The notes under the pieces: generated by a model | Database searches by the model: none | The model's input: the letters and a program-made list of their open reading frames with translations, nothing else | Told to the model about the DNA's origin: nothing | In this document: in pieces, positions 16,080-39,360 of the stretch | Numbering within the stretch: position 1 is the first letter of the stretch | Layout: the number at the start of each line of letters is the position of its first letter | Position numbers and translations under genes: made by a program | NCBI GenBank assembly: GCA_963827025.1 | Contig: CAWGZB010000005.1 | Span: forward strand, 711,471-775,470 | DNA length: 64,000 bases | DNA from: an uncultured Actinomycetota bacterium | Lineage (GTDB): Bacteria; Actinomycetota; Actinomycetes; Propionibacteriales; Nocardioidaceae | Reading direction: 5' to 3'

Positions 16080-16177
16080 GACCCCATTGTGACCAACCCC
16101 TGCAGGCGGCCTGCGACCGCCCGGGGGTGACGGCCATACTGTCCTGCGTGGGGACCACGCTCGTCGAGCCCACGGCG

Positions 16178-20559: not shown

Positions 20560-20593
20560 GGGCGGCACCCTAGACGCAGTCTCCCGACGCGGC

Positions 20594-21271: not shown

Positions 21272-22555
21272 ATGGCGGCGACAACTGCTTCGACGGCCCC
21301 CACCGACCACCTCTCCCCCGGCCGGTACGTCGACCGGCCGGTGCCGCGCCGGTGGCGCGCCGACCCGCGCTGGTCCGAACGCGTCGCTGCGCCGCTGCGG
21401 CTGACCGCCGGACCGGGCGGCCGGCCCACGCCCCACGAGGTCCAGCGGCTCCAGCGCGGACTGCTCGAGCGCGACGAGGTCGCCGACGCCTTCGTGCGCG
21501 CCGTGCGGGAGGACCACTCGGTGACGATGGCCCAGTTCCGCACCGCGCTCGCGCACGGGGCGGACGCCCTGCCCGACGCGCCGCCGCCCCTGCGCGACCT
21601 CTTCTCGGCGGTCGAGGCACGTCCGGACTGGGTCCGGGACGACCTGCTCGACCGCGGGGCGCGGGCGACCAGGCGGATCGGCTGGGACGGCTGGGACATC
21701 CTCGCCTTCGGGTCGCTGCTCGGCGGCTACCGCACCGCTGCGGCCCTCGAGCCCCTGGCGCGCTCCGGGCGGCTCTCCAGCGCCACCACCCTGCAGCGCA
21801 TCGGGGAGACCGGCGACTGGTGGCTGGCGTGCACCGCGCCGGGCGGGATGCAGCGGAACCGGCCCGGGTGGCAGCTGACCGTGCACGTCCGGGTGATGCA
21901 CGCATTCGTGAACTACCAGCTCGAGCGTGCCGCCGACTGGGACTGGGACCTGCGCGGGGTGCCGATCAACGCCTACGACCAGGCGAGCACCCTGGGCACC
22001 TTCTCCACGTCGTACCTGCTGCACGCGCGTCTGCTCGGCATCCGGGTCTCCCGCGCCGACTCGCGGGCGATCATGCACCTGTGGTCCTACGTCGGCTGGC
22101 TGATGGGCGTGCCCGAGGAGTGGCTTCCGCACACCGAGACGGTGGGCCGACGGGTGCTCTACCGGATGCTGGCGAACGATCCCGGACCGGACCGCAACAG
22201 CCGCGACCTGGCCGCTGCGCTGATGCACACCCACGAGCACTACCCGGGGCTCTCGCCCGCCCGGCGGTTCTACGAGCGGGAACGGGCGCTGAGCGCGGCG
22301 ACCTTCCTGACCAGCCCCGGCGGCATGCGCGAGCTCGGGCTGCCGCGGCGGCCGCCGTGGTACCCGGCGTACCGCATCGGCAGCAACCTGTTCTGGACGC
22401 ACCTGGTCGGCAGGCTGCCGAGCGGCCACCGGCTGCTCGACCGCCGCGCGGCCAGGGCGCTCGACCGACGCATGCGCCTGCAGTACGGCGACCGCCGGCC
22501 CCCGATCGGCAGCGCCGAGCCGGTGGTCGCACCGGCCTCCCGGACCCGTCCGTGA
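21272..22555 (+). CDS. DUF2236 / MpaB-family oxygenase-like protein
   Basis: 427 aa. The central region ([26 protein letters not shown]....[13 protein letters not shown]....[13 protein letters not shown]) resembles the ER-bound oxygenase MpaB / rubber oxygenase (DUF2236) family. Assigned from memory of the family profile only. Confidence 0.55.
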
Positions 22556-22646
22556 CCGCGCAGCACGCCAGGTGTCGGGACCCGTCCGGGCGAAGGATCG
22601 GCTCGCAGTAGTCTCCCGGTGGACCACCGGACCCCCGAGGAGAGTC

Positions 22647-24434: not shown

Positions 24435-24447
24435 GCCCCCAGCCCGT

Positions 24448-24497
24448 GGGACGTCCTCGGAGCTCGCGGCAAGAGCGACGAGGAGGTACGACGTCCC
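24448..24497. terminator. Imperfect long hairpin between convergent accA and SDR genes
   Basis: GGGACGTCCTCG (24448-24459) pairs with CGAG (24479-24482) and GACGTCCC (24490-24497), leaving an internal bulge. Confidence 0.3.
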
Positions 24498-24504
24498 GAA
24501 GGGG

Positions 24505-25314
24505 TCAGCGCAGGCCGGGATGTCCCTTGGCCACCACGCTGGCCAGGAGCCGCTTGGGCACCACGTTCGCGAAGGCTGCCGCCGCCCGGTTGGCGGCGCC
24601 GGGGATGACCACCTGGGTGCCTCTCGCCAGCCCCGCCACGGCCGTCCTGGCCACCTCCGGCGCCGACACCCACATGAACGAGGGCAGCGTCTGCTCGGCC
24701 TCACCCTCGCCGAAACCGGCCGCCTCCTCGAAGCCCGTCTTGACCGGGCCCGGACACAGCGCGGTCGCATGGACACCGGTGCCGGCGAGCTCGGCGGCCA
24801 GGCTTCGGGTGTAGGAGAGCACGAACGCCTTGGCGGCGCCGTACCCCGCCTGACCGGGAAGTGGCTGGAACGCCGCCGTCGAGGCGACGTTGAGCACCGC
24901 TCCCTCGCCACGTTGCACCATGCCCGGCAAGAAGCGCGTGCACAGGTCGGCCACGGCGACCACGTCGAGCTCGAGCATGTCGACCTCGCCGGACGGGTCG
25001 GCCTTGTGCACCGGCCCCAGCGTCGAGTAGCCCGCGTTGTTGACGAGGACGGAGGCGGTGAGTCGCCGCGACTCCAGCTCCGGCAGCAGGGCAGCGCGGG
25101 CTTCCCGGTCGGACAGGTCGGCGGGCAGGACTGCGACCTCGCGGCCGCTGCCCCGCAGCTCCCGGGCGAGCGCCTCGAGCCGGTCCGCCGACCTGGCCAC
25201 CAGGGCCAGGTCGTGGCCCCGCCGGGCGAGCTCACGAGCGATCTCGGCGCCGATCCCCGAGGAGGCACCGGTCACGACGGCGACGTGGCCCGGCCCGGGC
25301 GCAGGAAGGCTCAT
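24505..25314 (-). CDS. SDR family oxidoreductase (short-chain dehydrogenase/reductase)
   Basis: TGASSGIG cofactor motif, NNAG, and the YGAAKAF catalytic YxxxK. Divergent from fas. Confidence 0.85.
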   Translation of the reverse strand: MSLPAPGPGHVAVVTGASSGIGAEIARELARRGHDLALVARSADRLEALARELRGSGREVAVLPADLSDREARAALLPELESRRLTASVLVNNAGYSTLGPVHKADPSGEVDMLELDVVAVADLCTRFLPGMVQRGEGAVLNVASTAAFQPLPGQAGYGAAKAFVLSYTRSLAAELAGTGVHATALCPGPVKTGFEEAAGFGEGEAEQTLPSFMWVSAPEVARTAVAGLARGTQVVIPGAANRAAAAFANVVPKRLLASVVAKGHPGLR

Positions 25315-25385
25315 GGAGCGGACCGTACCCGTGCCCGCCCCGGACAGCGAGCGGCGTCTCGGAAGCTACCGAAGAGTATGAGGAA

Positions 25386-25447
25386 GTTCTCAGAAAAAAT
25401 GCGAGGCTAGATTCGGGTTCGCGCAGAGAACATGATGTAATCCTCAG
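25386..25447 (+). promoter_or_regulatory. AT-rich putative fas promoter/operator region
   Basis: This is the lowest-GC stretch in the area. Candidate -10 boxes are TAGATT (25408-25413) and TGTAAT (25434-25439, 8 nt before the fas ATG, which could give a leaderless mRNA). The inverted repeat GTTCTC (25386-25391) / GAGAAC (25426-25431) brackets TAGATT. There is no Shine-Dalgarno before the ATG. Confidence 0.3.
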
Positions 25448-28400
25448 ATGACTTCGTTCCTCACCTCGACCTCCACCCAGCCCGAGCCCGACCACCCGAC
25501 CGACCGGTCGACCGCCGCGCGCACCCTGGCCGAGGAGCTGGCCGCCGAGGAGTTCGTGCTCGCCTTCGCAGGACAGGGCGCGGACTGGCTGGACACCGTG
25601 CGCCGGCTGGCCGAGGAGGACCCCGCGGCCGGCCGGCTCGACCAGCTGGTCGCCGCCTCCGCGGCCGCGGTGGCGCCGGTCGACGGTGAGCTCGTCGCCG
25701 CCCTCCCCCGGCCCTTCGACCCGTCCGGGTGGTTGGGGGCGCAGCCTTCGCCGCAGGACCTGGTCACGCCCTCTGTCTCGGTGCCCGGCGTGCTGCTCAC
25801 CCAGCTGCTCACCCTCGACCACCTCGCCGTCGAGGGTCTCGACCTGGCGCACACCGCCCCGGCCGCCGCAGTCGGCCACAGCCAGGGCATCCTCGGTGTC
25901 GCGGCATTCGCCGGCCGCCGGGAGGGGACGGGCCATCGCGGTGACGTCGAGATCCTGGCGATCGCCCGACTCGTGGGCGCCGCCGCCACGCTCGTCGCCC
26001 GGCGCCACCGTCTCGCCGGTCACGGCCCGGACGGCCCCATGCTGGCCGTCAACGGGGCGACCCGCCCCGAGCTCGAGGCCCTGCTCCCCGACGGCGCCGT
26101 GATCGCGGCGGTGAATGGTCCGCGCCACCTGGTGCTCAGCGGCATGCCGCAGGCCCTGCGGCAGCTGCGTACGGCGGTCGAGCGTCGCCGCGACACGGAC
26201 CGCGCCGAGGTGGACCTCAAGCGACGGGGCGGCCGCCTCCTCGACCCCACCATGGAGCCCGTCGCCGCCGCCGCCGGTTTCCACCACCCCGGGCTGGCCC
26301 CGGCGGTCGACCTCGTCGGCGCCTGGGCCGAGCGCTGCGGGCTGGACCGTGAGCTCGCCGAGCACCTCGCCCGCGCGATCTGCGTGGAGCCGGTCGACTG
26401 GCCGCGGGAGCTGACCGACGCGGTCGGTGAGCGCACCCGCTGGGTCCTCGACGTGGGGCCCGGCGAGGTGACCGCACGCCTGACTGCGCGCGCGCTGCGT
26501 GGCCGTGGCGTCACCGTCGTGCCCGCCGCGACCCCCACGGGCCGTGACCAGCTGTTCACCGCCGGCGCCGAGGTGGAGCGCGCGGGTGACTGGTCGACGT
26601 ACGCCCCGCGACTCATCGACCGAGGCGACGGCCGCCCCGTGGTCGACACCGCGTTCACGCGGCTGACCGGCAAGTCCCCGATCCTGCTGGCCGGCATGAC
26701 GCCCACCACGGTGGACCCGGAGATCGTGGCGGCGGCCGCGAACGCCGGTCACTGGGCCGAGCTCGCCGGCGGCGGACAGGTCACCGAGGCCATCTTCGAG
26801 CGCAACGTCGGCCGGCTCACCGAGCTGCTCGAGGAGGGCCGGACGGCGCAGTTCAACGCACTCTTCCTCGACCCCTACCTGTGGAAGCTACAGGTCGGCG
26901 GCCGGCGGCTGGTCCAGAAGGCGCGGCAGGCCGGCGCACCCTTCGACGGGTTGGTCGTCAGCGCCGGCATCCCCGACCTCGAGGACGCGGTCGCGCTCGT
27001 CGACGACCTGCAGGAGGCCGGACTGACCCACGTGGTGTTCAAGCCCGGCACCGTGCGGCAGATCCGCCAGGTCCTCGCCATCGCCCGTGAGGTTGCCACC
27101 CCCCTGGTGGTGCACATCGAGGGCGGCGCGGCCGGCGGCCACCACTCCTGGGAGGACCTCGACGAGCTGCTGCTGGCGACGTACGCCGAGCTCCGGGAGG
27201 TGCCGGACCTGGTCGTGTGTGTCGGCGGCGGCATCGGTACGCCGGACCGGGCGGTGGAGTACCTGACCGGTCGCTGGTCGGTGGCCCACGGCGAGGCGCC
27301 CATGCCGGTGGACGGCGTCCTGGTCGGGACCGCGGCGATGGCCACCCGGGAGGCGACCACCTCGGCGCAGGTCAAGCACCTGCTCGTGCAGACCCCCGGC
27401 ATCGAGACCGGCTGGGTCGGCGCCGGCACCAGCGCCGGCGGGGTGACGTCGGGACGGAGTCAGCTGGGCGCGGACATCCACGAGGTCGACAACGCGGCGT
27501 CGCGGTGTGGCCGGCTCCTCGACGAGGTGGCCGGAGACGCCGAGGCCGCGCTGGCTCGCAAGGAGGAGCTGGTCGCGGCGATGGCCGGGACCTGCAAGCC
27601 CTACTTCGGCGACGTGGCCGAGATGACCTACGAGCAGCTGCTGCGCCGCTACCTCGAGCTCGCCGGCCCCCGGCCCTCGACGAGCCCGGTCACCGCAAGG
27701 GGTTGGCTGGACGTCACCTTCGCCGAGCGCTTCCAGGCGCTGCTCGACCGGGCGGTGGCCCGGCTGCACCCGGAGGCCTCGGGTCGGGTCCCGCGGATCG
27801 AGCTCGACCTCTCCGACCCCGCCGCTGCGGCGGCCGCCGTCGACACGCTCGTGGCACAGTTCCCGCAGGCGGCGGACTGCCGGCTGCACCCGGCCGACGT
27901 GCACCACTTCCTCGAGGTGTGCCGGCGCCTCGGCAAGCCCGTCACCTTCGTCCCGGTGATCGATGCCGACGTACGCCGGTGGTGGCGGTCGGACTCGCTG
28001 TGGCAGGCCCACGACGAGTCCTACGGGGCCGACCAGGTGATCGCCATCCCCGGCCCGGTCGCGGTCGGTGGGATCACCGAGGCCGACGAGCCGGTCGCCG
28101 ACCTGCTCGACCGCTTCGAGGCCGCGGTCGCCGACGCGGTCGGTGACGCCACACCGGCAGCTGCGGCCGCCAGCCGGACCACCGTCGGCGCGGACACCAC
28201 GCTGCTCGATGCGGCCTACGACGCCAGCGACGTGGTGTGGGCGGGCCGGGTCGTGCCGAACCCGCTGCACCGGCTGACCGACACCGGCGCCGAGCTGGTG
28301 CCGGACGGGCCTCGCGGGGCGGTGCTGCGGGTGCCGCTCGGCGGCGACGACCTGCGCCTGCGGCTTGATCTCTCGGGCGTGCCGCAGGGTCGCCTCCCCG

Positions 28401-31400
28401 TCGTCACCGAGGAGGCGGCGACCGCGGCGATGGGCGAGCTGCTCACCCGGACCGCCGGCGGAGAACTGCCCGAGCTAGTGGAGGCCCCCGCCGGCGGTTG
28501 CGCCACCCGGACGGTGGCGTGGTCCCCGGACCTCGCTGCCGACCACGCTGCCGTCACCGACCCGGTGCGCCGGCGCCGCGAGGAGCGGACGGAGCCGGAG
28601 ACCGGCACCGTCCCCGACGCGCTCGTGGGCCTGGCCTGGCCGGCCGTGTTCGCCTGCATCGGGCCGGTCGAGGGCCTGTTGGACCTCGTGCACCTCGACC
28701 ACCGGATCGAGATCGCGGGTCCGGAGGTGCTGGCCGGGCTCGAGCAGGCGAAGCCGGTCACCGTCACTGCGAGCCGGGCCGGGGTCACGCACACCGGCGC
28801 GGGTCAGGTGATCGAGGTGCACGGGGAGCTGACGTCCGCGGACCAGCAGCTCGCGACGCTGCACGAGCGGTTCCTCGTGCGGGGCCGGGGCGGCGCCGAG
28901 GATCTGACTGCACCGGGCTCCCTGGCGCCGGACGCCGTCGACCGCCCGCGGGCCCGGCTCGACCGCTGCACGCTCACCGCACCGGAGCACCTCGGTGCCT
29001 TCGCCGCGGTCAGCGGCGACCACAACCCGCTGCACACCGAGCTCGCCGCCGCCCGGCTCGCCGGGTTCGACAGCCCGATCGTGCACGGCATGTGGCTCTC
29101 CGCGGTGGCCCAACGTCTCGCTGCCGGCGCCGGGGCGGTGCACCGGCCGCGGCAGGTCCGCAGCTGGCTGGCCCGCTGGGTGGCGCCGCTCCTGCCCGGG
29201 CAGGAGGTCGAGGTCATCGTCGAGCGCACCGGGGTGCGCGCAGGCGACACCGTCGTCGAGGTGAGCTGCCGCGCCGCCGGAGAGCTGGTCATGGTCGCCG
29301 AGGCCGTGCTCGCCGCTCCCCTCACGGCCTACGCCTTCCCCGGTCAGGGCATCCAGAGCCAGGGCATGGGGCTCGACGCCCGCTCCCGCTCCGCCGCTGC
29401 CCGCGAGGTCTGGGACCGCGCGGACCGGCACACCCGCGAGGCGCTCGGCTTCTCGATCCTGGCCGTCGTACGCGACAACCCCACGGAGCTGGATGCCGAG
29501 GGCGAGGCGCACCGGCACCCCGACGGCGTGCTGTTCCTGACCCAGTTCACCCAGGTCGCGATGGCCACGCTCGCGGTCGCGCAGGTCGCCGAGCTGCGCG
29601 AGGCCGGCGTGTTCGTCGAGGGCGCGGTGAGCTGCGGGCACTCGGTCGGTGAGTACAACGCTCTGGCCGCGGTCACCGGCATCCTGCCGCTCGAGGCGCT
29701 GCTGGAGATCGTGTTCCGCCGCGGCATGGCGATGCACCACCTGGTGCCGCGCGACGCACAGGGGCGCAGCGACTTCCGGCTGGCCGCGATCCGCCCTGCG
29801 CAGGCCGGCCTGGCCGACGACGAGGTCACCGGCTTCGTCGACGAGTTGGCTGCGCGGACCGGCGAGTTCCTGCAGATCGTCAACTTCAACCTGCGCGGCT
29901 CGCAGTACGCCGTCGCCGGCACCGTCGCCGGTCTCGAGGCCCTCGAACGCGAGATCGAGCGGCGTCGGGCCGAGGCCGGTGGCAAGCCGGCCTTCATCCT
30001 GGTGCCGGGGGTCGACGTGCCGTTCCACTCCGAGCAGCTGCGGGCCGGCGTGCCGGAGTTCCGCGCCCGGCTCGAGGGGCTGCTGCCCGAGCGGATCGAC
30101 GCAGGCATGCTGGTGGGCCGCTACATCCCCAACCTGGTGCCGCGGCTGTTCACCGTGGACCGGGACTACGTCGCGGAGGTCGCAGCGTACGTCGACGCGC
30201 CGGCGCTCGACGCCGTGCTCGCGGACTGGGAGCAGGCCTGCGCCGACCCGGACCGGCTCGCGCGGACCCTGCTCGTCGAGCTGCTCGCCTGGCAGTTCGC
30301 CAGCCCGGTGCGCTGGATCGAGACCCAGGATCTGCTCCTCGGCTCTGCCGAGCAGGGCGGCCTCGGGGTCGAGCAGCTGGTGGAGGTCGGAGTGGCCAAC
30401 GCGCCCACCCTGGCCAACCTGGCCGCGCAGACGACGCGGCTGGCGTCGTTCACCGGGTCGGTCCCGCGCATCCTGAACTCCTCCCGCGACGCCCAGGCGG
30501 TCCTGGCCGAGGACGCCCCCCTTCTTGACCCCGACGACGAAGACCCGCGAGGCGTCGCAGATGTGCACGCCGAGGACGCCGAGGCGTCGCAGAAAGGCGG
30601 CGAATCGACCGGCGAGCACACATCTGCGACGCCTCAGCAGGCTGTCGACGCACATCCGCGACGCCTCGGCGAAGAGAGTGAGCGGCCGGCCGACCTCACC
30701 TTCACAGCGGCCGATGCGACCGCGCTGCTGGCGGCGCTGCGCACCAAGGTGCGGCTCGACCAGATCGGCCCGGCCGACACGATCGAGGCCCTCTGCGACG
30801 GCGTGTCCTCGCGGCGCAACCAGGTGCTCGTGGACCTCGGCGCGGAGCTCTCGCTCGGGGCGATCGACGGTGCGGCCGAAGCGGACTGGACCTCGCTCGC
30901 CGCGACCGTGGACAAGCTGGCCCGCGGCTACACGCCCTTCGGGCCCGTGCTGACCGAGGCGGTCGCCGAGCAGCTGCGCAGCTTCGCGCAGTCCTCGGGG
31001 GCACGTCCGTCGGCGATCACCGACCGGGTGCGCGACACCTGGCAGCTCGGGGCGGGCTGGGTGGCACACGTCTCGGCCGCCCTGGCCGCCGGCCTGCGCA
31101 GCGGCACGTCGACCCGCGGAGGCGACCTCGGGTCCGACCTTCCCGCGGACCTCGACGGTGCGGTCGACCAAACCGTCCAGCAGGTGGCGGCCGCCCAGGG
31201 CGTGCAGGTCGCACTCCCTGCGAGCGGGGGCGCGGAGGCCACCGTCGACGCAGCCGCGCTGGGTGAGCTGACGGCGGAGATCACCGGCCCCGACGGGGTT
31301 CTGGCGAGCACCGCACGGCACCTGCTCGGACAGCTCGGCATCCGCCCCGACGATGCATCCGCCGAGGACGACGGCGACCTCGACGCCGGCCTGGCGCGAC

Positions 31401-34400
31401 TGGTCGAGGCCGAGCTGGGGCCGGACTGGGCCCGCAAGGTCGCGCCCGCCTTCGACGCGGACCGTGCCGTCCTGCTCGACGACCGCTGGGCCTCGGCGCG
31501 TGAGGACCTCGCCCGGGCATGGACCGGGGACGAAGACGTGCGGGACCGTTCGTTCGCCAATCTCGACCCGGCCGCCTTGGCACAGGCCTCCTGGTGGCTG
31601 GCCCGTGCCCGCCGCGAGCAGCGCACCGACCTGGTCAGCTTCTACGGCGGCGTGCTCGCCCGCAGCGAGCAGGACCTGCCGTGGGCCGACGAGGTCGCCG
31701 TGGTGACCGGCGCCGCGCCGGGATCGATCGCCGCCGCAGTGGTGGCCGACCTGCTCCGCGGCGGCGCGACCGTGGTGGCCACGAGCTCACGGCTCGACGC
31801 CGAGCGGACGTCGTACTTCCGCGCCCTCTACCGCGACCACGCCACGACCGGCGCGGCCCTGTGGGTGCTGCCGGCCAACCTGGCGTCGTACGCCGACATC
31901 GACGCGTTGGTCGACTGGATCGCCGCGCCGGTGGTCGAGGAGGCCGGCGGCCAGCGCACCGAGCTGCGGCCGGGTCTGGACCCGACCCTGCTCTTCCCCT
32001 TCGCCGCCCCGCAGGTCCAGGGGTCGGCTGCCGATGCCGGCGCGCGCGCCGAGCTGGAGCTGCGGGTCCTGCTGCTGGGCGTGGAGCGCCTGGTCACGGG
32101 GCTGGCCGCGAAGGGTGCGGACCACCGGATCGGCCGGCGGGTGCACGTCGTGCTGCCCGGCTCCCCGAACCGGGGCCGCTTCGGCGGCGACGGAGCCTAC
32201 GGAGAGGCCAAGGCCGCGTTCGACGCGTTCGTGCAGCGTTGGCACGCCGAGACCGAGTGGGCACGCCGGGTCTCCCTGGTGCACGCCCAGATCGGTTGGG
32301 TGCGCGGCACCGGGCTGATGGGCCACAACGACCCGCTGGTGGACGCCGTCACGGCGCAGGGTGTGCGCACGTTCGCGCCCACCGAGATGGCGGCCGAGCT
32401 GCTCACGCTGTGCCGCCCGGGCGCGCGTGCCGAGGCAGCCGAGGCACCGCTCGCCGCCGATCTCACCGGCGGCCTGGACGAGGTCGAGCTCGACCTGGCC
32501 ACGCTGGCGAGGGAGACTCGTGCGTCCGTGGCTTCGACGAGCCCACTTTCGGAGGGCTCGACCACCGAGGCGGACGAAGCCACGGTGGAGGCGCTCACCC
32601 ATCCCGCCGGGTGGCGGACCCGGCAGCCGACGATGGCGTGGCCGGAGGTCACCTCCCGTCCCGAGGACATGGTCGTGATCGTGGGTGCCGGCGAGGTCGG
32701 CCCGCTCGGCTCCTCGCGCACCCGCTGGGAGCTCGAGGTGGAAGACCACCTCTCCCCTGCCGGAGTGCTGGAGCTGGCCTGGGTGACCGGCCGGATCGTG
32801 TGGGAGCACAACCCCGTGGCCGGCTGGCACGACGCCGCCACCGGTGAGCCACTCTCCGAGTCGCAGATCGTGGAGCGCTTCGCCGAGGAGATCGAGGCCG
32901 GCGTGGGCATCCGCCGGTTCGCAGACGACGGCGCGATGGTCGACGGCACCGCACCGCTGGTGCTTCCGGTCTTCCTCGAGGAGGACACCTCCTTCCTGGT
33001 CAGGACTCGTGCGGAGGCCGACGCCTTCCGCGAGGCCGACCCCGAGCGGACCCGCGTCACCGCGACCGCGGACGGCGACTGGCAGGTCACCCGGCTGGCC
33101 GGCAGCCAGGTGCGCGTGCCACGGCGGTTCAAGCTGTCCCGCTACGTCGGCGCCCAGGTGCCCGCCGGGTTCGACCCGGCTGTCTACGGGCTGGGGTCGA
33201 TGACCGAGTCGGTCGACCGGCTCGCGGCCTGGAACCTGGTGGCCACCGTGGACGCCTTCGTCGCCAGCGGGGTGGAGCCCGCGGACCTGCTGCGCTGGGT
33301 CCACCCGACCCGCCTGGCCAACACCCAGGGCACCGGGATCGGCGGGATGCAGTCGACGCGGAAGATGTACGTCGACGCGTTGCTCGGGGAGACCCCGCCG
33401 AACGACGTGCTCCAGGAGGCGCTGCCGAACGTGATCGCAGCCCACACGGTGCAGTCCTATCTCGGCGGGTACGGCGCCATGGTGCACCCCGTCGCCGCGT
33501 GCGCGACCGCAGCCGTGAGCGTCGAGGAAGCCGTCGACAAGATCCGGCTGGACAAGGCGAGCGTCGTGGTCGCCGGTGGGTTCGACGACCTCGGCATCGA
33601 GGGCATCCTCGGCTTCGGCAACATGAGCGCCACCGCCGACACCGATCAGATGCTCGCCCGTGGGATCGAGGAGCGGCACGTGTGCCGGCCCAACGACCGC
33701 CGGCGCGGCGGGTTCGTCGAGGGACAGGGCGGCGGCACCGTCCTCCTGGCCCGCGGCGACGTGGCCGCCGACCTCGGCCTGCCGGTGCTCGGCGTGGTCG
33801 CCTACGCCGGGTCGTTCGCCGACGGCGTGCACACCTCGATCCCGGCGCCGGGCCTCGGTGCGCTGGGAGCGGGTGTCGGCGGCGCGGACTCGCCGCTGGC
33901 CCGCGGCCTCGCCGAGCTCGGGCTGGGTGCCGACGACGTGGCCGTGGTCTCCAAGCACGACACCTCCACCGCCGCCAACGACCCCAACGAGTCGCGCCTG
34001 CACGAGCGGCTGGCCGCGGCCGTCGGCCGCACGGACGGAGCGCCGCTCTACGTGGTCAGCCAGAAGTCGCTGACCGGCCACGCCAAGGGCGGTGCCGCGG
34101 CCTTCCAGCTGGTCGGGCTCTGCCAGCTGCTCGCCGACGGGGTGGTGCCGGCCAACCGCGGCCTGGACTGCGTCGACGACGCGCTGGCGGAGAATCCGCA
34201 CCTGGTCTGGTTGCGCGAGCCACTGCGGACGGGGCCGCTGCGGGCGGGGCTGCTGACCAGCCTGGGCTTCGGGCACGTCTCTGCGCTGCTTGCGGTCGTG
34301 CACCCTGGTGCCTTCGTGGCGGCGCTCGAAACGGGGCGGCGCGAGGCCTGGCTGCGCCGGGCGACTGACAGGCTGAAGGCCGGCGAGCAGCGCCGCCTGG

Positions 34401-34558
34401 AGGCGATGCACGGCGGTGACCCGCTCTACCGTCGACCGGAGCGCCGACGGTTCGCCGAGACGGACATCGACGTCGTGCGCGACGACGAGAGCGCGATGCT
34501 GCTCGACCCGCGGGCGCGCCTGGGCGAGTCCGGGGTCTACGCGAGGTCGGCCCGATGA
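25448..34558 (+). CDS. fas: Type I fatty acid synthase (actinobacterial FAS-I; AT-ER-DH-MPT-ACP-KR-KS)
   Basis: Uninterrupted 3036-aa ORF. AT GHSQG (25874-25888). FMN/TIM-barrel ER region (SPILLAGMTPTTV...HIEGGAAGGHHS). Hot-dog DH (VSGDHNPLHT, ~29010). MPT (AFPGQGIQSQGMG, GHSVGEYNAL ~29638). ACP (DGVSSRRNQVLVDLG, Ser codon 30806-30808). KR Rossmann fold (VAVVTGAAPGSIAAAV, ~31690). KS active-site Cys in VAACATAAVS (33500-33502), plus SKHDTSTAANDPNE and KSLTGHAKGGAAA. Confidence 0.95.
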   Translation: MTSFLTSTSTQPEPDHPTDRSTAARTLAEELAAEEFVLAFAGQGADWLDTVRRLAEEDPAAGRLDQLVAASAAAVAPVDGELVAALPRPFDPSGWLGAQPSPQDLVTPSVSVPGVLLTQLLTLDHLAVEGLDLAHTAPAAAVGHSQGILGVAAFAGRREGTGHRGDVEILAIARLVGAAATLVARRHRLAGHGPDGPMLAVNGATRPELEALLPDGAVIAAVNGPRHLVLSGMPQALRQLRTAVERRRDTDRAEVDLKRRGGRLLDPTMEPVAAAAGFHHPGLAPAVDLVGAWAERCGLDRELAEHLARAICVEPVDWPRELTDAVGERTRWVLDVGPGEVTARLTARALRGRGVTVVPAATPTGRDQLFTAGAEVERAGDWSTYAPRLIDRGDGRPVVDTAFTRLTGKSPILLAGMTPTTVDPEIVAAAANAGHWAELAGGGQVTEAIFERNVGRLTELLEEGRTAQFNALFLDPYLWKLQVGGRRLVQKARQAGAPFDGLVVSAGIPDLEDAVALVDDLQEAGLTHVVFKPGTVRQIRQVLAIAREVATPLVVHIEGGAAGGHHSWEDLDELLLATYAELREVPDLVVCVGGGIGTPDRAVEYLTGRWSVAHGEAPMPVDGVLVGTAAMATREATTSAQVKHLLVQTPGIETGWVGAGTSAGGVTSGRSQLGADIHEVDNAASRCGRLLDEVAGDAEAALARKEELVAAMAGTCKPYFGDVAEMTYEQLLRRYLELAGPRPSTSPVTARGWLDVTFAERFQALLDRAVARLHPEASGRVPRIELDLSDPAAAAAAVDTLVAQFPQAADCRLHPADVHHFLEVCRRLGKPVTFVPVIDADVRRWWRSDSLWQAHDESYGADQVIAIPGPVAVGGITEADEPVADLLDRFEAAVADAVGDATPAAAAASRTTVGADTTLLDAAYDASDVVWAGRVVPNPLHRLTDTGAELVPDGPRGAVLRVPLGGDDLRLRLDLSGVPQGRLPVVTEEAATAAMGELLTRTAGGELPELVEAPAGGCATRTVAWSPDLAADHAAVTDPVRRRREERTEPETGTVPDALVGLAWPAVFACIGPVEGLLDLVHLDHRIEIAGPEVLAGLEQAKPVTVTASRAGVTHTGAGQVIEVHGELTSADQQLATLHERFLVRGRGGAEDLTAPGSLAPDAVDRPRARLDRCTLTAPEHLGAFAAVSGDHNPLHTELAAARLAGFDSPIVHGMWLSAVAQRLAAGAGAVHRPRQVRSWLARWVAPLLPGQEVEVIVERTGVRAGDTVVEVSCRAAGELVMVAEAVLAAPLTAYAFPGQGIQSQGMGLDARSRSAAAREVWDRADRHTREALGFSILAVVRDNPTELDAEGEAHRHPDGVLFLTQFTQVAMATLAVAQVAELREAGVFVEGAVSCGHSVGEYNALAAVTGILPLEALLEIVFRRGMAMHHLVPRDAQGRSDFRLAAIRPAQAGLADDEVTGFVDELAARTGEFLQIVNFNLRGSQYAVAGTVAGLEALEREIERRRAEAGGKPAFILVPGVDVPFHSEQLRAGVPEFRARLEGLLPERIDAGMLVGRYIPNLVPRLFTVDRDYVAEVAAYVDAPALDAVLADWEQACADPDRLARTLLVELLAWQFASPVRWIETQDLLLGSAEQGGLGVEQLVEVGVANAPTLANLAAQTTRLASFTGSVPRILNSSRDAQAVLAEDAPLLDPDDEDPRGVADVHAEDAEASQKGGESTGEHTSATPQQAVDAHPRRLGEESERPADLTFTAADATALLAALRTKVRLDQIGPADTIEALCDGVSSRRNQVLVDLGAELSLGAIDGAAEADWTSLAATVDKLARGYTPFGPVLTEAVAEQLRSFAQSSGARPSAITDRVRDTWQLGAGWVAHVSAALAAGLRSGTSTRGGDLGSDLPADLDGAVDQTVQQVAAAQGVQVALPASGGAEATVDAAALGELTAEITGPDGVLASTARHLLGQLGIRPDDASAEDDGDLDAGLARLVEAELGPDWARKVAPAFDADRAVLLDDRWASAREDLARAWTGDEDVRDRSFANLDPAALAQASWWLARARREQRTDLVSFYGGVLARSEQDLPWADEVAVVTGAAPGSIAAAVVADLLRGGATVVATSSRLDAERTSYFRALYRDHATTGAALWVLPANLASYADIDALVDWIAAPVVEEAGGQRTELRPGLDPTLLFPFAAPQVQGSAADAGARAELELRVLLLGVERLVTGLAAKGADHRIGRRVHVVLPGSPNRGRFGGDGAYGEAKAAFDAFVQRWHAETEWARRVSLVHAQIGWVRGTGLMGHNDPLVDAVTAQGVRTFAPTEMAAELLTLCRPGARAEAAEAPLAADLTGGLDEVELDLATLARETRASVASTSPLSEGSTTEADEATVEALTHPAGWRTRQPTMAWPEVTSRPEDMVVIVGAGEVGPLGSSRTRWELEVEDHLSPAGVLELAWVTGRIVWEHNPVAGWHDAATGEPLSESQIVERFAEEIEAGVGIRRFADDGAMVDGTAPLVLPVFLEEDTSFLVRTRAEADAFREADPERTRVTATADGDWQVTRLAGSQVRVPRRFKLSRYVGAQVPAGFDPAVYGLGSMTESVDRLAAWNLVATVDAFVASGVEPADLLRWVHPTRLANTQGTGIGGMQSTRKMYVDALLGETPPNDVLQEALPNVIAAHTVQSYLGGYGAMVHPVAACATAAVSVEEAVDKIRLDKASVVVAGGFDDLGIEGILGFGNMSATADTDQMLARGIEERHVCRPNDRRRGGFVEGQGGGTVLLARGDVAADLGLPVLGVVAYAGSFADGVHTSIPAPGLGALGAGVGGADSPLARGLAELGLGADDVAVVSKHDTSTAANDPNESRLHERLAAAVGRTDGAPLYVVSQKSLTGHAKGGAAAFQLVGLCQLLADGVVPANRGLDCVDDALAENPHLVWLREPLRTGPLRAGLLTSLGFGHVSALLAVVHPGAFVAALETGRREAWLRRATDRLKAGEQRRLEAMHGGDPLYRRPERRRFAETDIDVVRDDESAMLLDPRARLGESGVYARSAR
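30544..30672. repeat. Copy A of the 32-bp-periodic inverted-repeat element, lying in-frame inside fas
   Basis: Forward units are 30548-30566 (cgaggcgtcgcagatgtgc) and 30575-30593 (gacgccgaggcgtcgcaga). Reverse units are 30616-30635 (gcacacatctgcgacgcctc) and 30650-30670 (gcacatccgcgacgcctcggc). Same-arm units are exactly 32 bp apart. The centre contains cgaatcg, as in copy B. Outer boundaries are approximate. Confidence 0.85.
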
Positions 34559-35016
34559 CGGCCCTGAAGGTGGCCCTGGTCGAGGGCGCCGGCGACCGGC
34601 CCGCCGAGGGCGTGGGGGTCGACGTGGTGTCGATCTCGGCCTTCGCCGATCAGCTGGAGGAGCCGGGCACCCGCTTCGCCCGGGCGTTCACGCCCGCCGA
34701 GCGGCGTACGGCAGCACGCGCGAGCGGAGGTCCGGCACAGAGCCTGGCCACCCGCTGGGCGGCCAAGGAGTCGGTGGTCAAGGCATGGTCGAGCACGCAC
34801 TTCGGGCACCCGGAGGTGATCGACCCGGCGCACGTGGACCTGCGCGAGATCGAGGTCCGCAGCGACCGCTGGGGACGACCCGAGGTGCGGCTGCACGGGG
34901 CGATCGCCCGCTCGATGGGCGGGTACGACGTCCGGCTGTCGCTCTCCCATGACGCCGATGCCGACGTGGCGATCGCCTTCGTCGTGCTGCACGAGAGGAG
35001 CGACCGCGATGCCTGA
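34555..35016 (+). CDS. acpS: Holo-[acyl-carrier-protein] synthase (4'-phosphopantetheinyl transferase AcpS)
   Basis: Its ATG overlaps the fas TGA (ATGA, 34555-34558). Motifs GVGVDVVSISAF, RWAAKESVVKA, LSLSHDADADVAIAFVVL. Confidence 0.85.
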   Translation: MTALKVALVEGAGDRPAEGVGVDVVSISAFADQLEEPGTRFARAFTPAERRTAARASGGPAQSLATRWAAKESVVKAWSSTHFGHPEVIDPAHVDLREIEVRSDRWGRPEVRLHGAIARSMGGYDVRLSLSHDADADVAIAFVVLHERSDRDA

Positions 35017-36976
35017 GACGCTCACCAGTGTCCTGCCGGCCCTGGTGGTCCGACTGCTGGTCGACGACGGCGCCGAGGTGGCCGCGGGGCAACCGGTCGC
35101 CGTCACCGAGACGATGAAGTGCGAGCAGACCCTGACCGCGCCGACGGCGGGGCGGCTGCGCTGGCGCTGCGCCGCCGGTGACGTGGTCGAGGCCGCCGAG
35201 GTGCTCGGCGACGTCGAGGCAGTGACCGACGTGCCGGCGACCCCGGGGCGGGCCCGTCCGCGGCGCCCCCTGACACCGCAGCAGGTGGTCGACCTGGTGT
35301 GCGGGCCGGGGGCGGCTCCGGAGCTCGGCGCGGCGGCGCGCAGCGGGACGTTCGTGGAGCACGACCTCGTCCCCTCCGACGTCACCCGGGCGACCCCGGA
35401 CACCGGCGACCGGCTCCGCTCGGTGGCCGACGACGCGGCCTTCCGACGCGAGTGCGGCGTGATGGTCGGGGTGATGACCCATCGCCTCGACGGTCACCCG
35501 CAGGGCGTCTCCCGGGTGTGGATCGGCGGCGACCCTGCCCGCTCCATGGGTGCGGTCAGCGAGGCGGAGTGCCGGCGGATCATCGCCGCGATCGACCTCG
35601 CCGAGCGGCTCGGCGTACCCCTGGAGTGGGTGGCGGTCTCCGCGGGTGCCCGGATCGCCTGGGACACCGGCACCGAGAACATGGACTGGTGCGCGGCGGT
35701 GGTCGCCAAGCTGGTCCGGTTCACCCAACGCGGCGGCCAGGTCGTCGTGGTGGTCAACGGCATCAACGTCGGCGCCCAGTCCTACTGGAACGCCGAGGCC
35801 ACGATGCTCGGTCACCACCAGGGCATGCTGGTGATGCTGCCGGAGCAGGCGATGGTGCTCACCGGCAAGCGCGCGCTGGCGCTCAGCGGCGGTGGCAACC
35901 ATCGCGACGACGCGGCGATCGGCGGGTACGACGAGGTGATGGGCCCCAACGGCCAGGCGCACCACCGCGCCGCCGACCTGGTGGAGGCCTACCGCCTGGT
36001 GTTCACCCACCACACCCTGTGCACCCGCCGGCGCGACGAGCAGCCGGCCGCGGTGGAGACGGTCGATCCGCTCGACCGTGACATCAGCATCGACCCCTAC
36101 CCGGAGGCCGAGCCGTTCCACTCCGTCGGGGACATCCTCGACGATCTCGCCCACCCCAGCCGCAAGCAGGCCTTCGCGATCCGGCCGGTGATGGGGGCCG
36201 TCGTCGACCGGGACGCGCCCGTCCTGGAGCGGTGGACCGACATGGCCGACGCTGCGGGCACGGTGGTGTGGGACAGCCGCCTCGGCGGGCTGCCCACCAC
36301 CGTCATCGGGATCGAGTCGCGCCCGCACAGCGCCGACACCGGCGACCACTGGCTCTCCGGGGCGACCCTGCACCCGGAGGGCGCCCGCAAGGTGGCACGT
36401 GGGATCAACGCCGCCAGAGGCAACCGGCCGGTCGTGGTCCTGGCGAACCTGGCCGGCTTCGACGGCAGCGCCCGCTCGATGCGCGGGCGGCAGCTGGAGT
36501 ACGGCGCCGAGATCGCCCGCGCCGTCACCAACTTCGAGGGTCCGTTGGTCGTGGTCGTGCTCGGGCGCTTCCACGGCGGCGCCTACGTGGTGTTCAGCAA
36601 GGCGTTGAACCCGAACGTCTCGATCGTCGCGCTCGAGGGCACCTACGTCTCGGTGATCGGTGGCGACTCGGCGGCGGGCGTGGTGTTCGCCGGCGAGCTG
36701 AAGAAGCGGGTGGCCGCGGCTCTGCAGGCCGATCCCGGCGCCGACCGCGAGGCGGTTCACCGCCGGGAGCGCGACCTGCTGGCTCGGGAGTTCGACCGGG
36801 TGCACGACGTACGCCGGGCCGCGCAGGTCGGCTCCATCGACGAGGTCATCCGGCCGCGGGAGGTGCGCGCGACGGTGGCGCGACTGCTCGGGGTACCGCA
36901 GGCGCGGCCCGACCTCGACGGCGCTCAGGAGGCGGAGCGGTTCCGCGCGGCGTCAGCCTCGGCGGCGAGCAGGTAG
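35009..36976 (+). CDS. Biotinyl (BCCP-like) domain fused to a eukaryotic-ACC-type carboxyltransferase domain; no biotin carboxylase domain
   Basis: ATG at 35009 overlaps the acpS end (ATGCCTGA). The N-terminal ~72 aa form a biotinyl/lipoyl-type domain with ETMKCE (Lys codon 35117-35119). The rest aligns by eye to the yeast/animal ACC CT: VSAGARIAWD (cf. ANSGARIG), LGGLPTTVIGIESR (cf. LGGIPVGVIAVETR), VVLANLAGFDGSARSM (cf. ILANWRGFSGGQRDM), FHGGAYVVFSKALNPN (cf. LRGGSWVVVDPTIN). Confidence 0.8.
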   Translation: MPETLTSVLPALVVRLLVDDGAEVAAGQPVAVTETMKCEQTLTAPTAGRLRWRCAAGDVVEAAEVLGDVEAVTDVPATPGRARPRRPLTPQQVVDLVCGPGAAPELGAAARSGTFVEHDLVPSDVTRATPDTGDRLRSVADDAAFRRECGVMVGVMTHRLDGHPQGVSRVWIGGDPARSMGAVSEAECRRIIAAIDLAERLGVPLEWVAVSAGARIAWDTGTENMDWCAAVVAKLVRFTQRGGQVVVVVNGINVGAQSYWNAEATMLGHHQGMLVMLPEQAMVLTGKRALALSGGGNHRDDAAIGGYDEVMGPNGQAHHRAADLVEAYRLVFTHHTLCTRRRDEQPAAVETVDPLDRDISIDPYPEAEPFHSVGDILDDLAHPSRKQAFAIRPVMGAVVDRDAPVLERWTDMADAAGTVVWDSRLGGLPTTVIGIESRPHSADTGDHWLSGATLHPEGARKVARGINAARGNRPVVVLANLAGFDGSARSMRGRQLEYGAEIARAVTNFEGPLVVVVLGRFHGGAYVVFSKALNPNVSIVALEGTYVSVIGGDSAAGVVFAGELKKRVAAALQADPGADREAVHRRERDLLAREFDRVHDVRRAAQVGSIDEVIRPREVRATVARLLGVPQARPDLDGAQEAERFRAASASAASR

Positions 36977-37578
36977 GCGGTCAGCAGGCGCTTGAGCTCC
37001 ACCACCGCGTCCGGGTGCGACTGCCCGTCGCGGATGGAGAAGTTCAGCATCGAGTAGGTGACGTGCACGAGCACCTCGGCGATGGCCTGCCGGTGGGTGA
37101 TCTTCGAGCCGGGAGTCAGGGGCGCCAGCAGCCGGGTCACCTCGGTGGCCAGCTCGCGCTCGTGCTCGGCGGCGACCACGCGGGTGGGTGGGGTCGCCTG
37201 CATCGCCAGCCACACCGCCCGCCGGGAGGGGTCGGTACGCCACAGCCCCGCGAGGTGGTCCAGCAGCTTCTCCAGCAGCTGAGCCCAGTCCAGGCTGGGG
37301 ATCTCCGCCGCGAACTTGTCCAGCTCCTTCTTGACGTTCTCGGTGTCGAGGCGGTCGAGCTCGCAGACGATGGCGTACTTGTTGCCGAAGAATTGGTAGA
37401 GCGACCCGATCGGCACACCCGCCCGCAGCGCCACCTGCTCGGCGGTGAACGCCTCGAACCCGACTTCGACCAGCAGCGCCCGCGCAGCCCGGAGGATCTC
37501 GTCGAAGCGGCGGCGGCTGCGCTCCTGGGCCGGTCGGCGACGCGGCAGGAAGTCGGTCAGCTCGCTGGGCTTGGTCAT
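36925..37578 (-). CDS. TetR/AcrR family transcriptional regulator
   Basis: MTKPSELTDFLPRRRPAQERSRRRFDEILRAARALLVEVGFEAFTAEQVALRAGVPIGSLYQFFGNKYAI (HTH). Its 3' end overlaps the convergent BCCP-CT gene by 52 bp. Its start lies 16 bp from repeat copy B. Confidence 0.85.
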   Translation of the reverse strand: MTKPSELTDFLPRRRPAQERSRRRFDEILRAARALLVEVGFEAFTAEQVALRAGVPIGSLYQFFGNKYAIVCELDRLDTENVKKELDKFAAEIPSLDWAQLLEKLLDHLAGLWRTDPSRRAVWLAMQATPPTRVVAAEHERELATEVTRLLAPLTPGSKITHRQAIAEVLVHVTYSMLNFSIRDGQSHPDAVVELKRLLTAYLLAAEADAARNRSAS

Positions 37579-37593
37579 GTGCCCACGGTAAGG

Positions 37594-37776
37594 GACGCCG
37601 AGGCGTCACAGATGTGCGTCCGACGTACGCCGAGGCGTCACGGATGTGCATCCCAGGCACGCCCAGGCGTCACGGATGTGCAGTACCGAATCGGCCCCCA
37701 CCACAGGCCAGTCCGTATTGCCGCATATCTGCGACGCCTCGCCGCTCTCCGCGCGCACATCTGCGACGCCTCGGCG
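37594..37776. repeat. Copy B of the 32-bp-periodic inverted-repeat element (3 forward + 2 reverse units); it fills the intergenic region
   Basis: Forward units are 37594-37617 gacgccgaggcgtcacagatgtgc, 37626-37649 tacgccgaggcgtcacggatgtgc and 37658-37681 cacgcccaggcgtcacggatgtgc. A 41-nt centre contains accgaatcgg. Reverse units are 37723-37744 gcatatctgcgacgcctcgccg and 37755-37776 gcacatctgcgacgcctcggcg. Unit starts are exactly 32 bp apart within each arm. Confidence 0.9.
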
Positions 37777-37779
37777 GAA

Positions 37780-39360
37780 TCAGTCGAGGGTGATCCTGAC
37801 CTTGCCGGAGCGATAGACCCGCAGGGTGCCGTGCGCGAAGTCGGCGTACCGGCCGCGCCTGAAGCGCTTCGGTTTGGTCTCGGGCAGCCCGAGGACCGAC
37901 TTGGTGCCGCCGCGGCGCAGGTAGACACGCATCACCCGGCCCCAGAGCTCGTGCGCGCCGGTGTCCGGGCTCCACCAGATCCGTCCGTGCGCGAAGCGCC
38001 GCACCCGGCCACCGCTCACCGCACGCTCGCGGGTCCTGGCGCTGCCCAGCCGCCCCTTGGCGCCGCCGAGCTGCTGCCACCGCTTCGTGATCGGGCTGCC
38101 CGTGGCCGGCGCCGGCGCCGGCGCGGGCGCGGGGGTGGCGGAGCCGCCGCTGCCGCCGCTGCTGGTGCCACCGCCCGCGGTCGGCCCGAAGCTGAACCAG
38201 TCCGAGCGCAGGCCGAAGGTGAAGCGGAAGGTGTTGCCGCTGACCGTGACGTCGGACCGGGAGCCGTCGAGGGTCATCTTCTCCACCCGGCCGTACCAGT
38301 CACCGTTGCCGTTGCGCTGGGTGACCACGATCCGCTTGAGCTTACCGAGCGCCGGCCAGGCCGACTGGATCCGGGAAGCTGCGAGCTTCGTGGTCCAGGT
38401 GTGCATCGGGTTGCCGCTGAAGTCGTCGTAGGGGTCGGCCTGGGCCGGCAGGTACGGCACGCTCCCGGCAGAGGTCCAGCCGCCGCTGGAGGAGCCAAAC
38501 TGGGTGAACGCCGGGCGGCCGCCGTAGGTGAGGACCTCCCCCGCGGTCGCGTCGACCGCCGCGTTGCCCCGGGAGTCCTCCGAGCTCAGACCCCCGTAGA
38601 CCTGGCAGGACGTGGTGTCGCAGGTCTGGTAGTAGCGGGTCGCGTGGTCGCTGCGGTCGCGCGCGGCATAGGTCCGGGCGGCCACCGCTTGCGCCTGCAC
38701 CGCGGCGGGCAGCCACGATGCCGGCATCTCCCGAGGCACCACGCCCTTGACGTAGTCCTCCAGGGGCAGCACGTTCACGGTGTCCTTGTTGACCAGGCGG
38801 AGCGCTCCGCGATAGATGCGCGAGCCGGAGCCCAGCCGCAGGGTGAGCGGCACCTTCGCCTCGAACTGCGCCGCCCCGTCGAGCGTGCGCCAGGCGTGCC
38901 AGGAGCCCTGGTGGTACTCCACCGCGGTGCCGCCGCTCGCGGGGCGCAACCGCCAGGAGGTGGCACCCACGTCCGTGGGCACGGGGTACGACGACCCGCC
39001 AGACACCGCCCGGACCCGCAGCCCCTTGGCCGGATCGACCTGGACGTTGTTGTCGCTGTCGGCGGTGATCAGCACCCGGATCTCGTCCCCGGCCGAGCCG
39101 AAGCTCGTGCCCGGGTAGTAGAAGCGGAGGATCTGCCGGTAGCCGAGTCCCTGACGCGCGGCCCCCTGGGCGCCGTACTGGGACATGCCGTGGCCGTGGC
39201 CGTAGCCGTGTCCGGTCACCGTGAAGGTGCCGCCGGAGGGGACGGTGTAGACCTGCGAGACCGAGCGCGAGGCGACGGCCGGCTCGCCCGGCGCCATGGT
39301 CGCGGCGACCGCGACCGCCAGGACCGCTCCGGTTGCCGCGCGGCGGACCTGCTGTGACAT
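37780..39360 (-). CDS. Secreted SpoIID/LytB-domain protein with C-terminal LGFP-like repeats
   Basis: Signal-peptide-like N-terminus (MSQQVRRAATGAVLAVAVAATMAPGEPAVA). SpoIID core GHGYGHGHGMSQYGAQGAA..YRQILRFYYPGT and YLKGVVPREMP...EAVQAQAVAARTYA. The tail has two repeats resembling LGFP (LGSARTRE...HGRIWWSP; LGLPETKP...HGTLRVYR). Confidence 0.85.
   Translation of the reverse strand: MSQQVRRAATGAVLAVAVAATMAPGEPAVASRSVSQVYTVPSGGTFTVTGHGYGHGHGMSQYGAQGAARQGLGYRQILRFYYPGTSFGSAGDEIRVLITADSDNNVQVDPAKGLRVRAVSGGSSYPVPTDVGATSWRLRPASGGTAVEYHQGSWHAWRTLDGAAQFEAKVPLTLRLGSGSRIYRGALRLVNKDTVNVLPLEDYVKGVVPREMPASWLPAAVQAQAVAARTYAARDRSDHATRYYQTCDTTSCQVYGGLSSEDSRGNAAVDATAGEVLTYGGRPAFTQFGSSSGGWTSAGSVPYLPAQADPYDDFSGNPMHTWTTKLAASRIQSAWPALGKLKRIVVTQRNGNGDWYGRVEKMTLDGSRSDVTVSGNTFRFTFGLRSDWFSFGPTAGGGTSSGGSGGSATPAPAPAPAPATGSPITKRWQQLGGAKGRLGSARTRERAVSGGRVRRFAHGRIWWSPDTGAHELWGRVMRVYLRRGGTKSVLGLPETKPKRFRRGRYADFAHGTLRVYRSGKVRITLD

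Follow-up and report, generated by a model that had tools for sequence, protein, structure and literature searches.

In a 64,000-nucleotide stretch of an uncultured Actinomycetota bacterium of the family Nocardioidaceae (GenBank assembly GCA_963827025.1, contig CAWGZB010000005.1, positions 711,471 to 775,470; G+C content, 71.6%), hereafter the window, the genes for a type I fatty acid synthase (FAS I; fas) and holo-acyl carrier protein (ACP) synthase (acpS) are directly followed by a gene whose product, the target of this analysis, joins a biotin carboxyl carrier protein (BCCP) domain to a carboxyltransferase (CT) domain of the type found in eukaryotic multidomain acetyl-CoA carboxylases (ACCs). 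We hold these statements on its domain content and CT type with very high confidence. As to function, we favor the reading (probability of roughly 0.6) that the target is one half, the CT, of a split eukaryote-type ACC from which FAS I obtains malonyl-CoA, with the biotin carboxylase (BC) acting in trans.

The three genes run head to tail on the forward strand (Table 1). The TGA stop of fas and the ATG of acpS share ATGA, a 4-nt overlap, and the target overlaps acpS by 8 nt, its ATG lying within that gene (ATGCCTGA); AGGAG is found at 34996-35000, 8 nt upstream of that ATG. We place the target start at 35009 because the alignment of 18 homologues begins a few residues before a conserved LPGLVV strand; a longer frame from an ATG at 34949 was ruled out, since in the same alignment the homologues begin at the acpS junction. 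The fas product matches the Pfam models Fas1-AflB-like_hel (345 bits), MaoC_dehydratas, Acyl_transf_1, and ketoacyl-synt N and C, and the acpS product scores 157.8 bits against the NCBIfam model NF000831 (holo-ACP synthase AcpS; cut-off, 124). The target is very probably co-translated with FAS I and with AcpS, which activates the ACP of FAS. A promoter and terminator scan of 24300-37800 gave no match, which in DNA of 72% G+C says little either way. We also observe a Pfam match named DNA_pol_B_N (PF18094; 44.9 bits) at FAS residues 925-1005 (28220-28462), which probably reflects a small helical module with an odd name rather than a polymerase domain.

In a Pfam scan, residues 6-66 of the target match Biotin_lipoyl (33.7 bits; cut-off, 22.1) and residues 162-627 match Carboxyl_trans (130.8 bits), and neither BC nor ACC_central (PF08326) is matched at an E value of ≤0.01. 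With 655 aa and two Pfam domains, the protein is not a single BC-BCCP-central-CT chain of ~200 kDa, and it is not self-sufficient because it is without BC, BT, and ACC_central. Only ~13 linker residues, variable in length and poorly conserved across the 18 homologues, lie between the BCCP and an N-terminal CT extension (residues 86-150), which is followed by the motifs VGAQSYWN (254-261) in the N domain and FHGGAYVV (521-528) in the C domain. An initial annotation, made from the sequence alone, had proposed the overlapping fas-acpS-target frames and a biotinyl domain fused to a CT without BC; reading the sequence confirms the frame positions and the stop/start overlaps, the Pfam scan bears out the domain content, and all four CT motifs that it quoted, VSAGARIAWD among them, are present, as is its ETMKCE motif with the Lys codon at 35117-35119.

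That codon (AAG) specifies the predicted biotin-attachment residue, Lys37, in the motif E-T-M-K-C. Residues E34, M36, K37, and C38 and the structural Gly/Val residues of the BCCP barrel are invariant in the 18 homologues, which are ~50% identical overall. In the AlphaFold2 (AF2) model, a monomer with a mean confidence score (pLDDT) of 79.7, K37 lies in the turn between strands 29-35 and 38-43 (pLDDT, 82-91), so that the above-threshold Biotin_lipoyl match comes together with a Met-Lys at the tip of a beta-hairpin. The short (BCCP-CT) proteins carry E-[T/S/A]-M-K-[C/L/I]-E, and their multidomain relatives, described below, carry E-[A/V]-M-K-[M/L/T]-E, both with the same D-x-L-x-x-x-E context before Met-Lys; in most short forms the biotinyl Lys is followed by Cys, and in the multidomain forms by Met, Leu, or Thr. 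Family-profile scores are 22-39 bits for the BCCPs of multidomain ACCs and 35.7 bits for that of AccA, the BC-bearing alpha subunit encoded in the window, so the profile would fit a fused BCCP retained from a single-chain ancestor as well as one captured from an AccA.

With respect to the type of CT, a phmmer search of the PDB with the target ranked the CTs of yeast, Chaetomium, and human ACC first (57-67 bits; yeast ACC, 66.8), with AccD6 (54.6 bits) and PccB-type subunits behind them. When the AF2 model was searched with Foldseek, 49 of the top 50 PDB matches were eukaryotic ACC CT domains or holoenzymes, the best being human ACC2 (3ff6; E = 2.8e-30); none of the 50 was AccD or PccB, and the single-chain carboxylase of long-chain acyl-CoA (LCC; 4rcn) came at rank 31. 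From an exhaustive search of 1.84 billion representatives we considered the 150 nearest, which align to the target through their C-terminal 500-560 residues at 42-54% identity. About 100 of them are multidomain-length proteins of 1600-1950 aa, and many others are shorter, probably partial chains. The multidomain-length relatives are encoded as single ORFs in genomic loci, and the five that were scanned with Pfam show Biotin_carb_N, an ATP-grasp domain, Biotin_carb_C, Biotin_lipoyl, and Carboxyl_trans, with ACC_central in four of the five. None of the NCBIfam beta-subunit models was reached by the target.

Neighbor-joining (NJ) trees, in which AccB-type subunits of Streptomyces and Rhodococcus served as outgroup and eukaryotes were represented by two partial fungal ACC sequences, separate the short, multidomain bacterial, and fungal CTs from AccD-type sequences with 100% bootstrap support, unite the short and multidomain bacterial proteins with 100%, and recover the multidomain proteins alone with 98-100%. 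The branch that parts the short, multidomain, and fungal CTs from the AccB type measures 0.8-1.2 substitutions per site (100% support), and the identity of the CT to plasmid-borne AccB genes is about 25-27%. A signature LAN..GF.G, which reads LAN..GF.GS where it is shared with yeast ACC, is common to the short proteins, the multidomain proteins, and yeast ACC; AccB has LVDVPGFLPG in its place. Residues V254-G255-A256-Q257 align to A-G-G-A of AccB and H522-G523-G524-A525-Y526 to its Y-G-G-A-Y; by comparison with the published structures of PccB and yeast CT, we take these two motifs to be the oxyanion holes. VGAQSYWN, FHGGAYVV, and more than 150 positions are invariant in the 18 homologues, and the catalytic apparatus of the target looks intact because both oxyanion-hole motifs are invariant in the family.

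Judged by its sequence, the target falls within the eukaryote-type, or "group V," multidomain ACC CT clade. An ordinary AccD/PccB beta subunit is ruled out by the PDB ranking, the fold search, the representative search, and the trees, and an LCC-type single-chain carboxylase by its fold rank, the lack of a sequence match, and a different domain order. The initial annotation had called the CT eukaryotic rather than AccD-like and had named missing oxyanion-hole residues as a possible refutation; all four lines of comparison agree with the former, and the residues in question are intact and invariant. What it did not contain is the link to the known family of bacterial single-chain eukaryote-like ACCs, beside which the target belongs.

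When one genome per species was scanned, 396 relatives were obtained and 80 of them retained (loci are given as L numbers where they must be told apart). Among the 80 are 25 short forms with lengths of 521-760 aa. All of these belong to Actinomycetota (Nocardioidaceae/Marmoricola, Microthrixaceae, Nanopelagicales, one Micrococcales metagenome-assembled genome [MAG], and unclassified MAGs). AcpS lies directly upstream in all 24 short-form loci with upstream sequence, an upstream FAS I is encoded in 22 of 22 (FAS ORFs 40-73% identical), and a homologue of the window's TetR lies downstream in 25 of 25. The acpS stop and the carboxylase start overlap by 4 nt at 20 of the 25 short-form loci (window counted) and by 8 nt in the window and L001. 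Among cultured organisms, Dermatobacter hominis has the same FAS-AcpS-BCCP/CT-TetR layout, with the gene annotated only as "carboxyl transferase domain-containing protein." The survey of fas-acpS-BCCP/CT synteny that had been proposed at the outset thus finds the arrangement conserved, overlapping junction included.

Two further architectures are found at this position. Myxococcota, Bradymonadia, Acidimicrobiales, and other groups contribute at least 19 loci in which a full-length single-chain ACC occupies the same acpS junction; the 4-nt acpS/ACC overlap is present in 11 of 19 multidomain loci. Tsukamurella tyrosinosolvens (L082) also has the full-length form at this junction. CT-only genes of 545-561 aa, with Carboxyl_trans as their only Pfam match, sit in the same fas-acpS-x-TetR slot at L030 and P0082 (L089/L090). 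In the NJ trees, the CT-only forms nest in the short-form clade beside BCCP-bearing Nanopelagicales-like members, and the loss of the BCCP is therefore secondary. Since the CT-only variants need BC and BCCP from elsewhere, this CT can depend on components in trans. At L026, BCCP and CT are in different reading frames (9698-10213 and 10213-11778), which suggests a frameshift, decay, or an assembly error.

Several side observations concern the full-length forms. Operons of FAS I, AcpS, and single-chain ACC were seen at L019, L028, L035, L041, L048, L057, L064, L067, L071, L072, L076-L080, and L082, and their presence in Myxococcota, Bradymonadia, and Acidimicrobiales means that this type of FAS I reaches well outside Mycobacteriales. 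The Tsukamurella FAS is annotated as "type I polyketide synthase." In three long-read MAG loci (L042, L044, and L046), the multidomain ACC is contained in two ORFs, BC-BCCP-central and then CT, which could be genuine gene fission or frameshift errors. Two chromosome-sized records of the plasmid collection, L083 (Nonomuraea gerenzanensis "plasmid I," 11.85 Mb) and L084 (Embleya, 3.1 Mb), carry unannotated full-length single-chain ACC genes as open frames of 1826 and 1868 aa.

If the target is the CT half of a split ACC, a biotin protein ligase would attach biotin to Lys37, and a BC on another polypeptide would carboxylate this biotin with ATP and bicarbonate. The short, flexible Pro/Arg linker may let the BCCP swing to the CT site, which by analogy with eukaryotic CT would be located at a homodimer interface, and the carboxyl group would be passed to acetyl-CoA, the presumed substrate, to yield malonyl-CoA for FAS I. 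The best candidate for the BC donor is AccA, whose gene ends 1 kb upstream of fas with a divergent short-chain dehydrogenase/reductase (SDR) gene between them. Charging in trans by AccA and a dedicated malonyl-CoA supply module were already suggested in the initial annotation, and both are still inferences. We infer this partnership from three observations: AccA is orthologous to mycobacterial AccA3, which it matches from end to end with 843 bits, it is near fas both in the window and at L001, where the AccA C-terminus is directly upstream of fas, and the window encodes no other CT. A family-profile search of the six-frame ORFs of ≥150 aa found no second CT in the window and matched only the AccA BCCP, in agreement with the earlier statement that no AccD-type beta subunit is encoded there. 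The initial annotation had also placed the start of AccA at 22647 and described the protein as a BC with its own BCCP; the Pfam domains uphold this, and the ORF begins upstream of that position (Table 1), with the true start probably near 22647.

A number of points weigh against this assignment. The target operon encodes no BC, and the normal docking partner of AccA3-type alpha subunits is hexameric AccD, which they contact through the BT region. No BC was found within 10 kb of the Dermatobacter hominis locus, which makes the AccA link a local feature of Nocardioidaceae and perhaps a coincidence. A canonical AccD or a full-length single-chain ACC may be encoded elsewhere in the genome. In the target, Cys replaces the usual Met after the biotinyl Lys, and the rate of evolution is two to three times higher in BCCP and linker than in the CT; being fast-evolving and lost in some relatives, the BCCP may be dispensable.

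These last features bear on the possibility that the fused BCCP is vestigial and that the target acts as a classical beta subunit fed by the biotin of an AccA3-type BCCP, which we consider unlikely but the most serious of the alternatives. It would account for the CT-only relatives in the same operon slot, nested as they are in the short-form clade, for the out-of-frame BCCP of L026, and for a relaxed constraint on the domain that is comparable to that on the linker; AccA moreover carries a canonical BCCP that scores 61 bits in Pfam versus 33.7 bits for the fused one. Set against this, E-x-M-K and the structural Gly/Val residues have stayed invariant in sequences that are ~50% diverged and come from two actinobacterial classes, the barrel is well folded in the AF2 model and has K37 on the tip of the hairpin, and most family members have kept the domain. 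Pairwise NG86 omega values among Nocardioidaceae relatives are 0.13-0.60 for the BCCP (35009-35224) versus 0.05-0.32 for the CT (35459-36898), and omega is below 1 in every pair.

We give distinctly less credence to a BC-independent role, in which the target would use its own biotin as a CoA-to-CoA carboxyl shuttle (for example, methylmalonyl-CoA + acetyl-CoA <-> propionyl-CoA + malonyl-CoA) or as a biotin-dependent decarboxylase. A chain with CT and BCCP has all the parts for CoA-to-CoA exchange, the related SACE_4237 acts on acetyl-CoA as well as propionyl-CoA, and a methylmalonyl-CoA mutase gene lies 5 kb upstream of accA, in keeping also with an operon that has no BC. Such a role is opposed by the companion genes: no 5S-type second transferase or membrane decarboxylase subunit was seen at locus level, by Pfam on the window genes at 16127-46240, by the window's own proteins as probes in related loci, and by precomputed Pfam tables for L088-L090. 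The CT-only variants would in addition need a carrier in trans, and the tight coupling to FAS I points to net malonyl-CoA synthesis, which needs ATP-driven carboxylation.

As for the direction of evolution, bacterial single-chain ACCs have been discussed as a source of the eukaryotic enzyme. The NJ topology is (AccD-type, (fungal, (short, multidomain bacterial))), which would make the short proteins the sister of the bacterial single-chain BC-BCCP-CD-CT carboxylases (CD, central domain). Because the fungal and multidomain bacterial proteins share a homologous central domain, their ancestor was multidomain by parsimony, and the short form most probably arose when the BC(-BT) and central domains were lost, with the acpS junction kept. 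The trees also hold features unfavorable to this order of events. The short proteins are not nested within the multidomain ones, and no more than 12-48% of replicates recover them as monophyletic; when AccD-type outgroups are used, the root of the two bacterial groups falls among the short proteins, with weak support; and the direction rests on NJ with only two partial fungal sequences, whose position outside both bacterial groups could be long-branch attraction to the outgroup. The converse, that BCCP-CT is a surviving prefusion stage of the eukaryote-type ACC and not a degraded single-chain enzyme, strikes us as improbable. Were it true, the two-gene state of an AccA-like BC donor and a fas-acpS-linked BCCP-CT would be ancestral, BC and central domains would have been added later to give the single-chain enzyme inherited by eukaryotes, and fas-acpS-carboxylase would be an old mobile module of "eukaryote-style lipogenesis" whose assembly steps could be read in living Actinomycetota.

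That the target is an inactive remnant (pseudo-enzyme or scaffold) of a degraded single-chain ACC, kept by its embedding in the fas operon, is very improbable: two of the four parts of the full-length relatives are lost and decay has gone further in some lineages, but the CT is under strong purifying selection (omega of 0.05-0.32), both oxyanion-hole motifs are invariant along with more than 150 positions, and the gene is intact in every short-form locus in several orders.

Beyond the operon, the 3' end of the target overlaps that of a convergent TetR gene, a candidate regulator of the fas-acpS-BCCP/CT module. Its homologues (40-88% identity) are present at L001-L018, L024-L027, L030, L034, L040, and L088-L090, and none was found in the multidomain ACC loci. 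FasR was rejected as its identity, as FasR is not among the PDB matches at E ≤ 1e-5, of which 3bni is the best. In two close relatives, L002 (13158-16568) and L003 (about 12865-16252), a 1136-aa ORF with an N-terminal BC and a C-terminal BCCP is divergent from the TetR gene; it was discarded as an operon partner, being of pyruvate carboxylase size and missing from the other loci. No epsilon subunit gene was noted beside the target, small ORFs not having been specifically searched.

Table 1. Coordinates of the features discussed (window positions unless a locus is named)
Feature	Position	Strand	Basis or location
fas, type I (fungal/CMN-type) fatty acid synthase, 3036 aa	25448-34558	+	Pfam
acpS, holo-ACP synthase	34555-35016	+	Pfam ACPS (60.7 bits); NCBIfam NF000831
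Target gene, BCCP-CT protein, 655 codons plus stop	35009-36976	+	ORF, Pfam, alignment of 18 homologues
Biotinyl (BCCP) domain, residues 1-72	35009-35224	+	Pfam Biotin_lipoyl; invariant motif; AF2 model
Pro/Arg-rich linker, residues 73-85	35225-35263	+	pLDDT < 50 at residues 76-82
Eukaryote-type carboxyltransferase domain, residues 86-655	35264-36976	+	Pfam, PDB/Foldseek, motifs, phylogeny
TetR-family regulator, convergent, 3' end overlaps target by 52 nt	36925-37578	-	Pfam TetR_N + TetR_C_22
AccA3-type alpha subunit, BC + BCCP	22572-24434	+	Pfam Biotin_carb_N, CPSase_L_D2, Biotin_carb_C, Biotin_lipoyl
SDR	24505-25314	-	Between accA and fas, as in L002/L003
Methylmalonyl-CoA mutase large subunit	18303-19997	-	~5 kb upstream of accA
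MarR	20017-20568	-	Upstream of accA
Second TetR	20594-21211	-	Upstream of accA
MpaB/Lcp-like oxygenase	21272-22555	+	Upstream of accA
SpoIID/LGFP protein	37780-39360	-	In place of the L002/L003 BC ORF
CT-only gene, L030	9453-11138		Pfam
CT-only gene, L089	10001-11638		Pfam
CT-only gene, L090	739-2376		Pfam

The locus represents a widespread, unstudied derivative in which a eukaryote-type CT without its own BC or central domain stands in an operon with a eukaryote-like FAS I. Full-length, BCCP-CT, and CT-only forms in one operon slot amount to a natural deletion series, which opens the questions of whether a bacterial AccA3-type subunit can feed a eukaryote-type CT, what the central domain is needed for, and how multidomain carboxylases are assembled or dismantled. 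Because the genes are annotated only as "carboxyl transferase domain-containing protein," metabolic reconstructions of Nocardioidaceae, Microthrixaceae, and Nanopelagicales may miss the malonyl-CoA source. Microthrixaceae are lipid-accumulating sludge bacteria, and Nanopelagicales live in freshwater. For the engineering of malonyl-CoA supply, a CT module that is compact and matched to FAS I could likewise be of help.

In the literature searched, we found neither a BC-less, CD-less BCCP-CT of this clade nor its CT-only derivatives nor the fas-acpS-ACC operon described, and the target architecture is not described in the 2011 survey of biotin carboxylase architectures by Lombard and Moreira (PMC3199775). 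The parent family is already known, bacterial eukaryote-like single-chain ACCs having been first characterized in 2019 (PMC6491548), and the BC-less BCCP-CT variant appears to be new.

Among known systems, the separation of BC from a carrier-bearing transferase in PycA/PycB, the archaeal/Aquificales-type pyruvate carboxylase, and in OadA of oxaloacetate decarboxylase is an established division of labor. The target resembles these proteins in having its carrier on the transferase chain, apart from BC (PMC3199775). It differs from PycB and OadA in that their CT is a TIM-barrel pyruvate/oxaloacetate transferase and their BCCP is C-terminal, whereas the target has a crotonase-fold CT and an N-terminal BCCP. 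LCC (4rcn), like the target, carries CT and BCCP on one chain and is a bacterial multidomain acyl-CoA carboxylase, but with another domain order and a hexameric assembly (PMC6491548). With the actinobacterial AccA3/AccD carboxylases the target shares the placement of BC and CT on separate subunits, and an AccA3 orthologue is encoded nearby; in contrast to these, its CT is only about 25% identical to the AccB/AccD type and carries its own BCCP.

The eukaryotic ACC CTs (yeast ACC1, human ACC1/2) are the best match in both sequence and fold among solved structures, and the target has the N-terminal CT extension, a VG(I)GA-type N-domain motif, and the LAN..GF.G signature in common with them. Unlike them, it is not part of a 250-kDa chain, its identity to them is ~29% over the 268 alignment columns compared, and its HGGAY is closer to the bacterial YGGAY than to the eukaryotic RGGSW. 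The closest characterized relative is of the SACE_4237 type. SACE_4237 of Saccharopolyspora erythraea is an essential homodimeric acetyl/propionyl-CoA carboxylase that supplies malonyl-CoA and whose CT groups with eukaryotic ACCs as a "group V" CT (Livieri et al. 2019, PMC6491548). The target CT is 44-54% identical to those of such single-chain ACCs and joins them in a 100%-supported clade, the BCCP hairpin shows the same context D-x-L-x-x-x-E-x-M-K-x-E, and both are tied to fatty acid synthesis, the full-length form often at the same acpS junction. The short proteins differ from this type in that they stand outside the 98-100%-supported clade of all multidomain bacterial sequences, that their genes are always followed by TetR, which the multidomain loci do not have, and that the target is without BC, BT, and ACC_central, with 655 aa versus about 1800-1950 aa.

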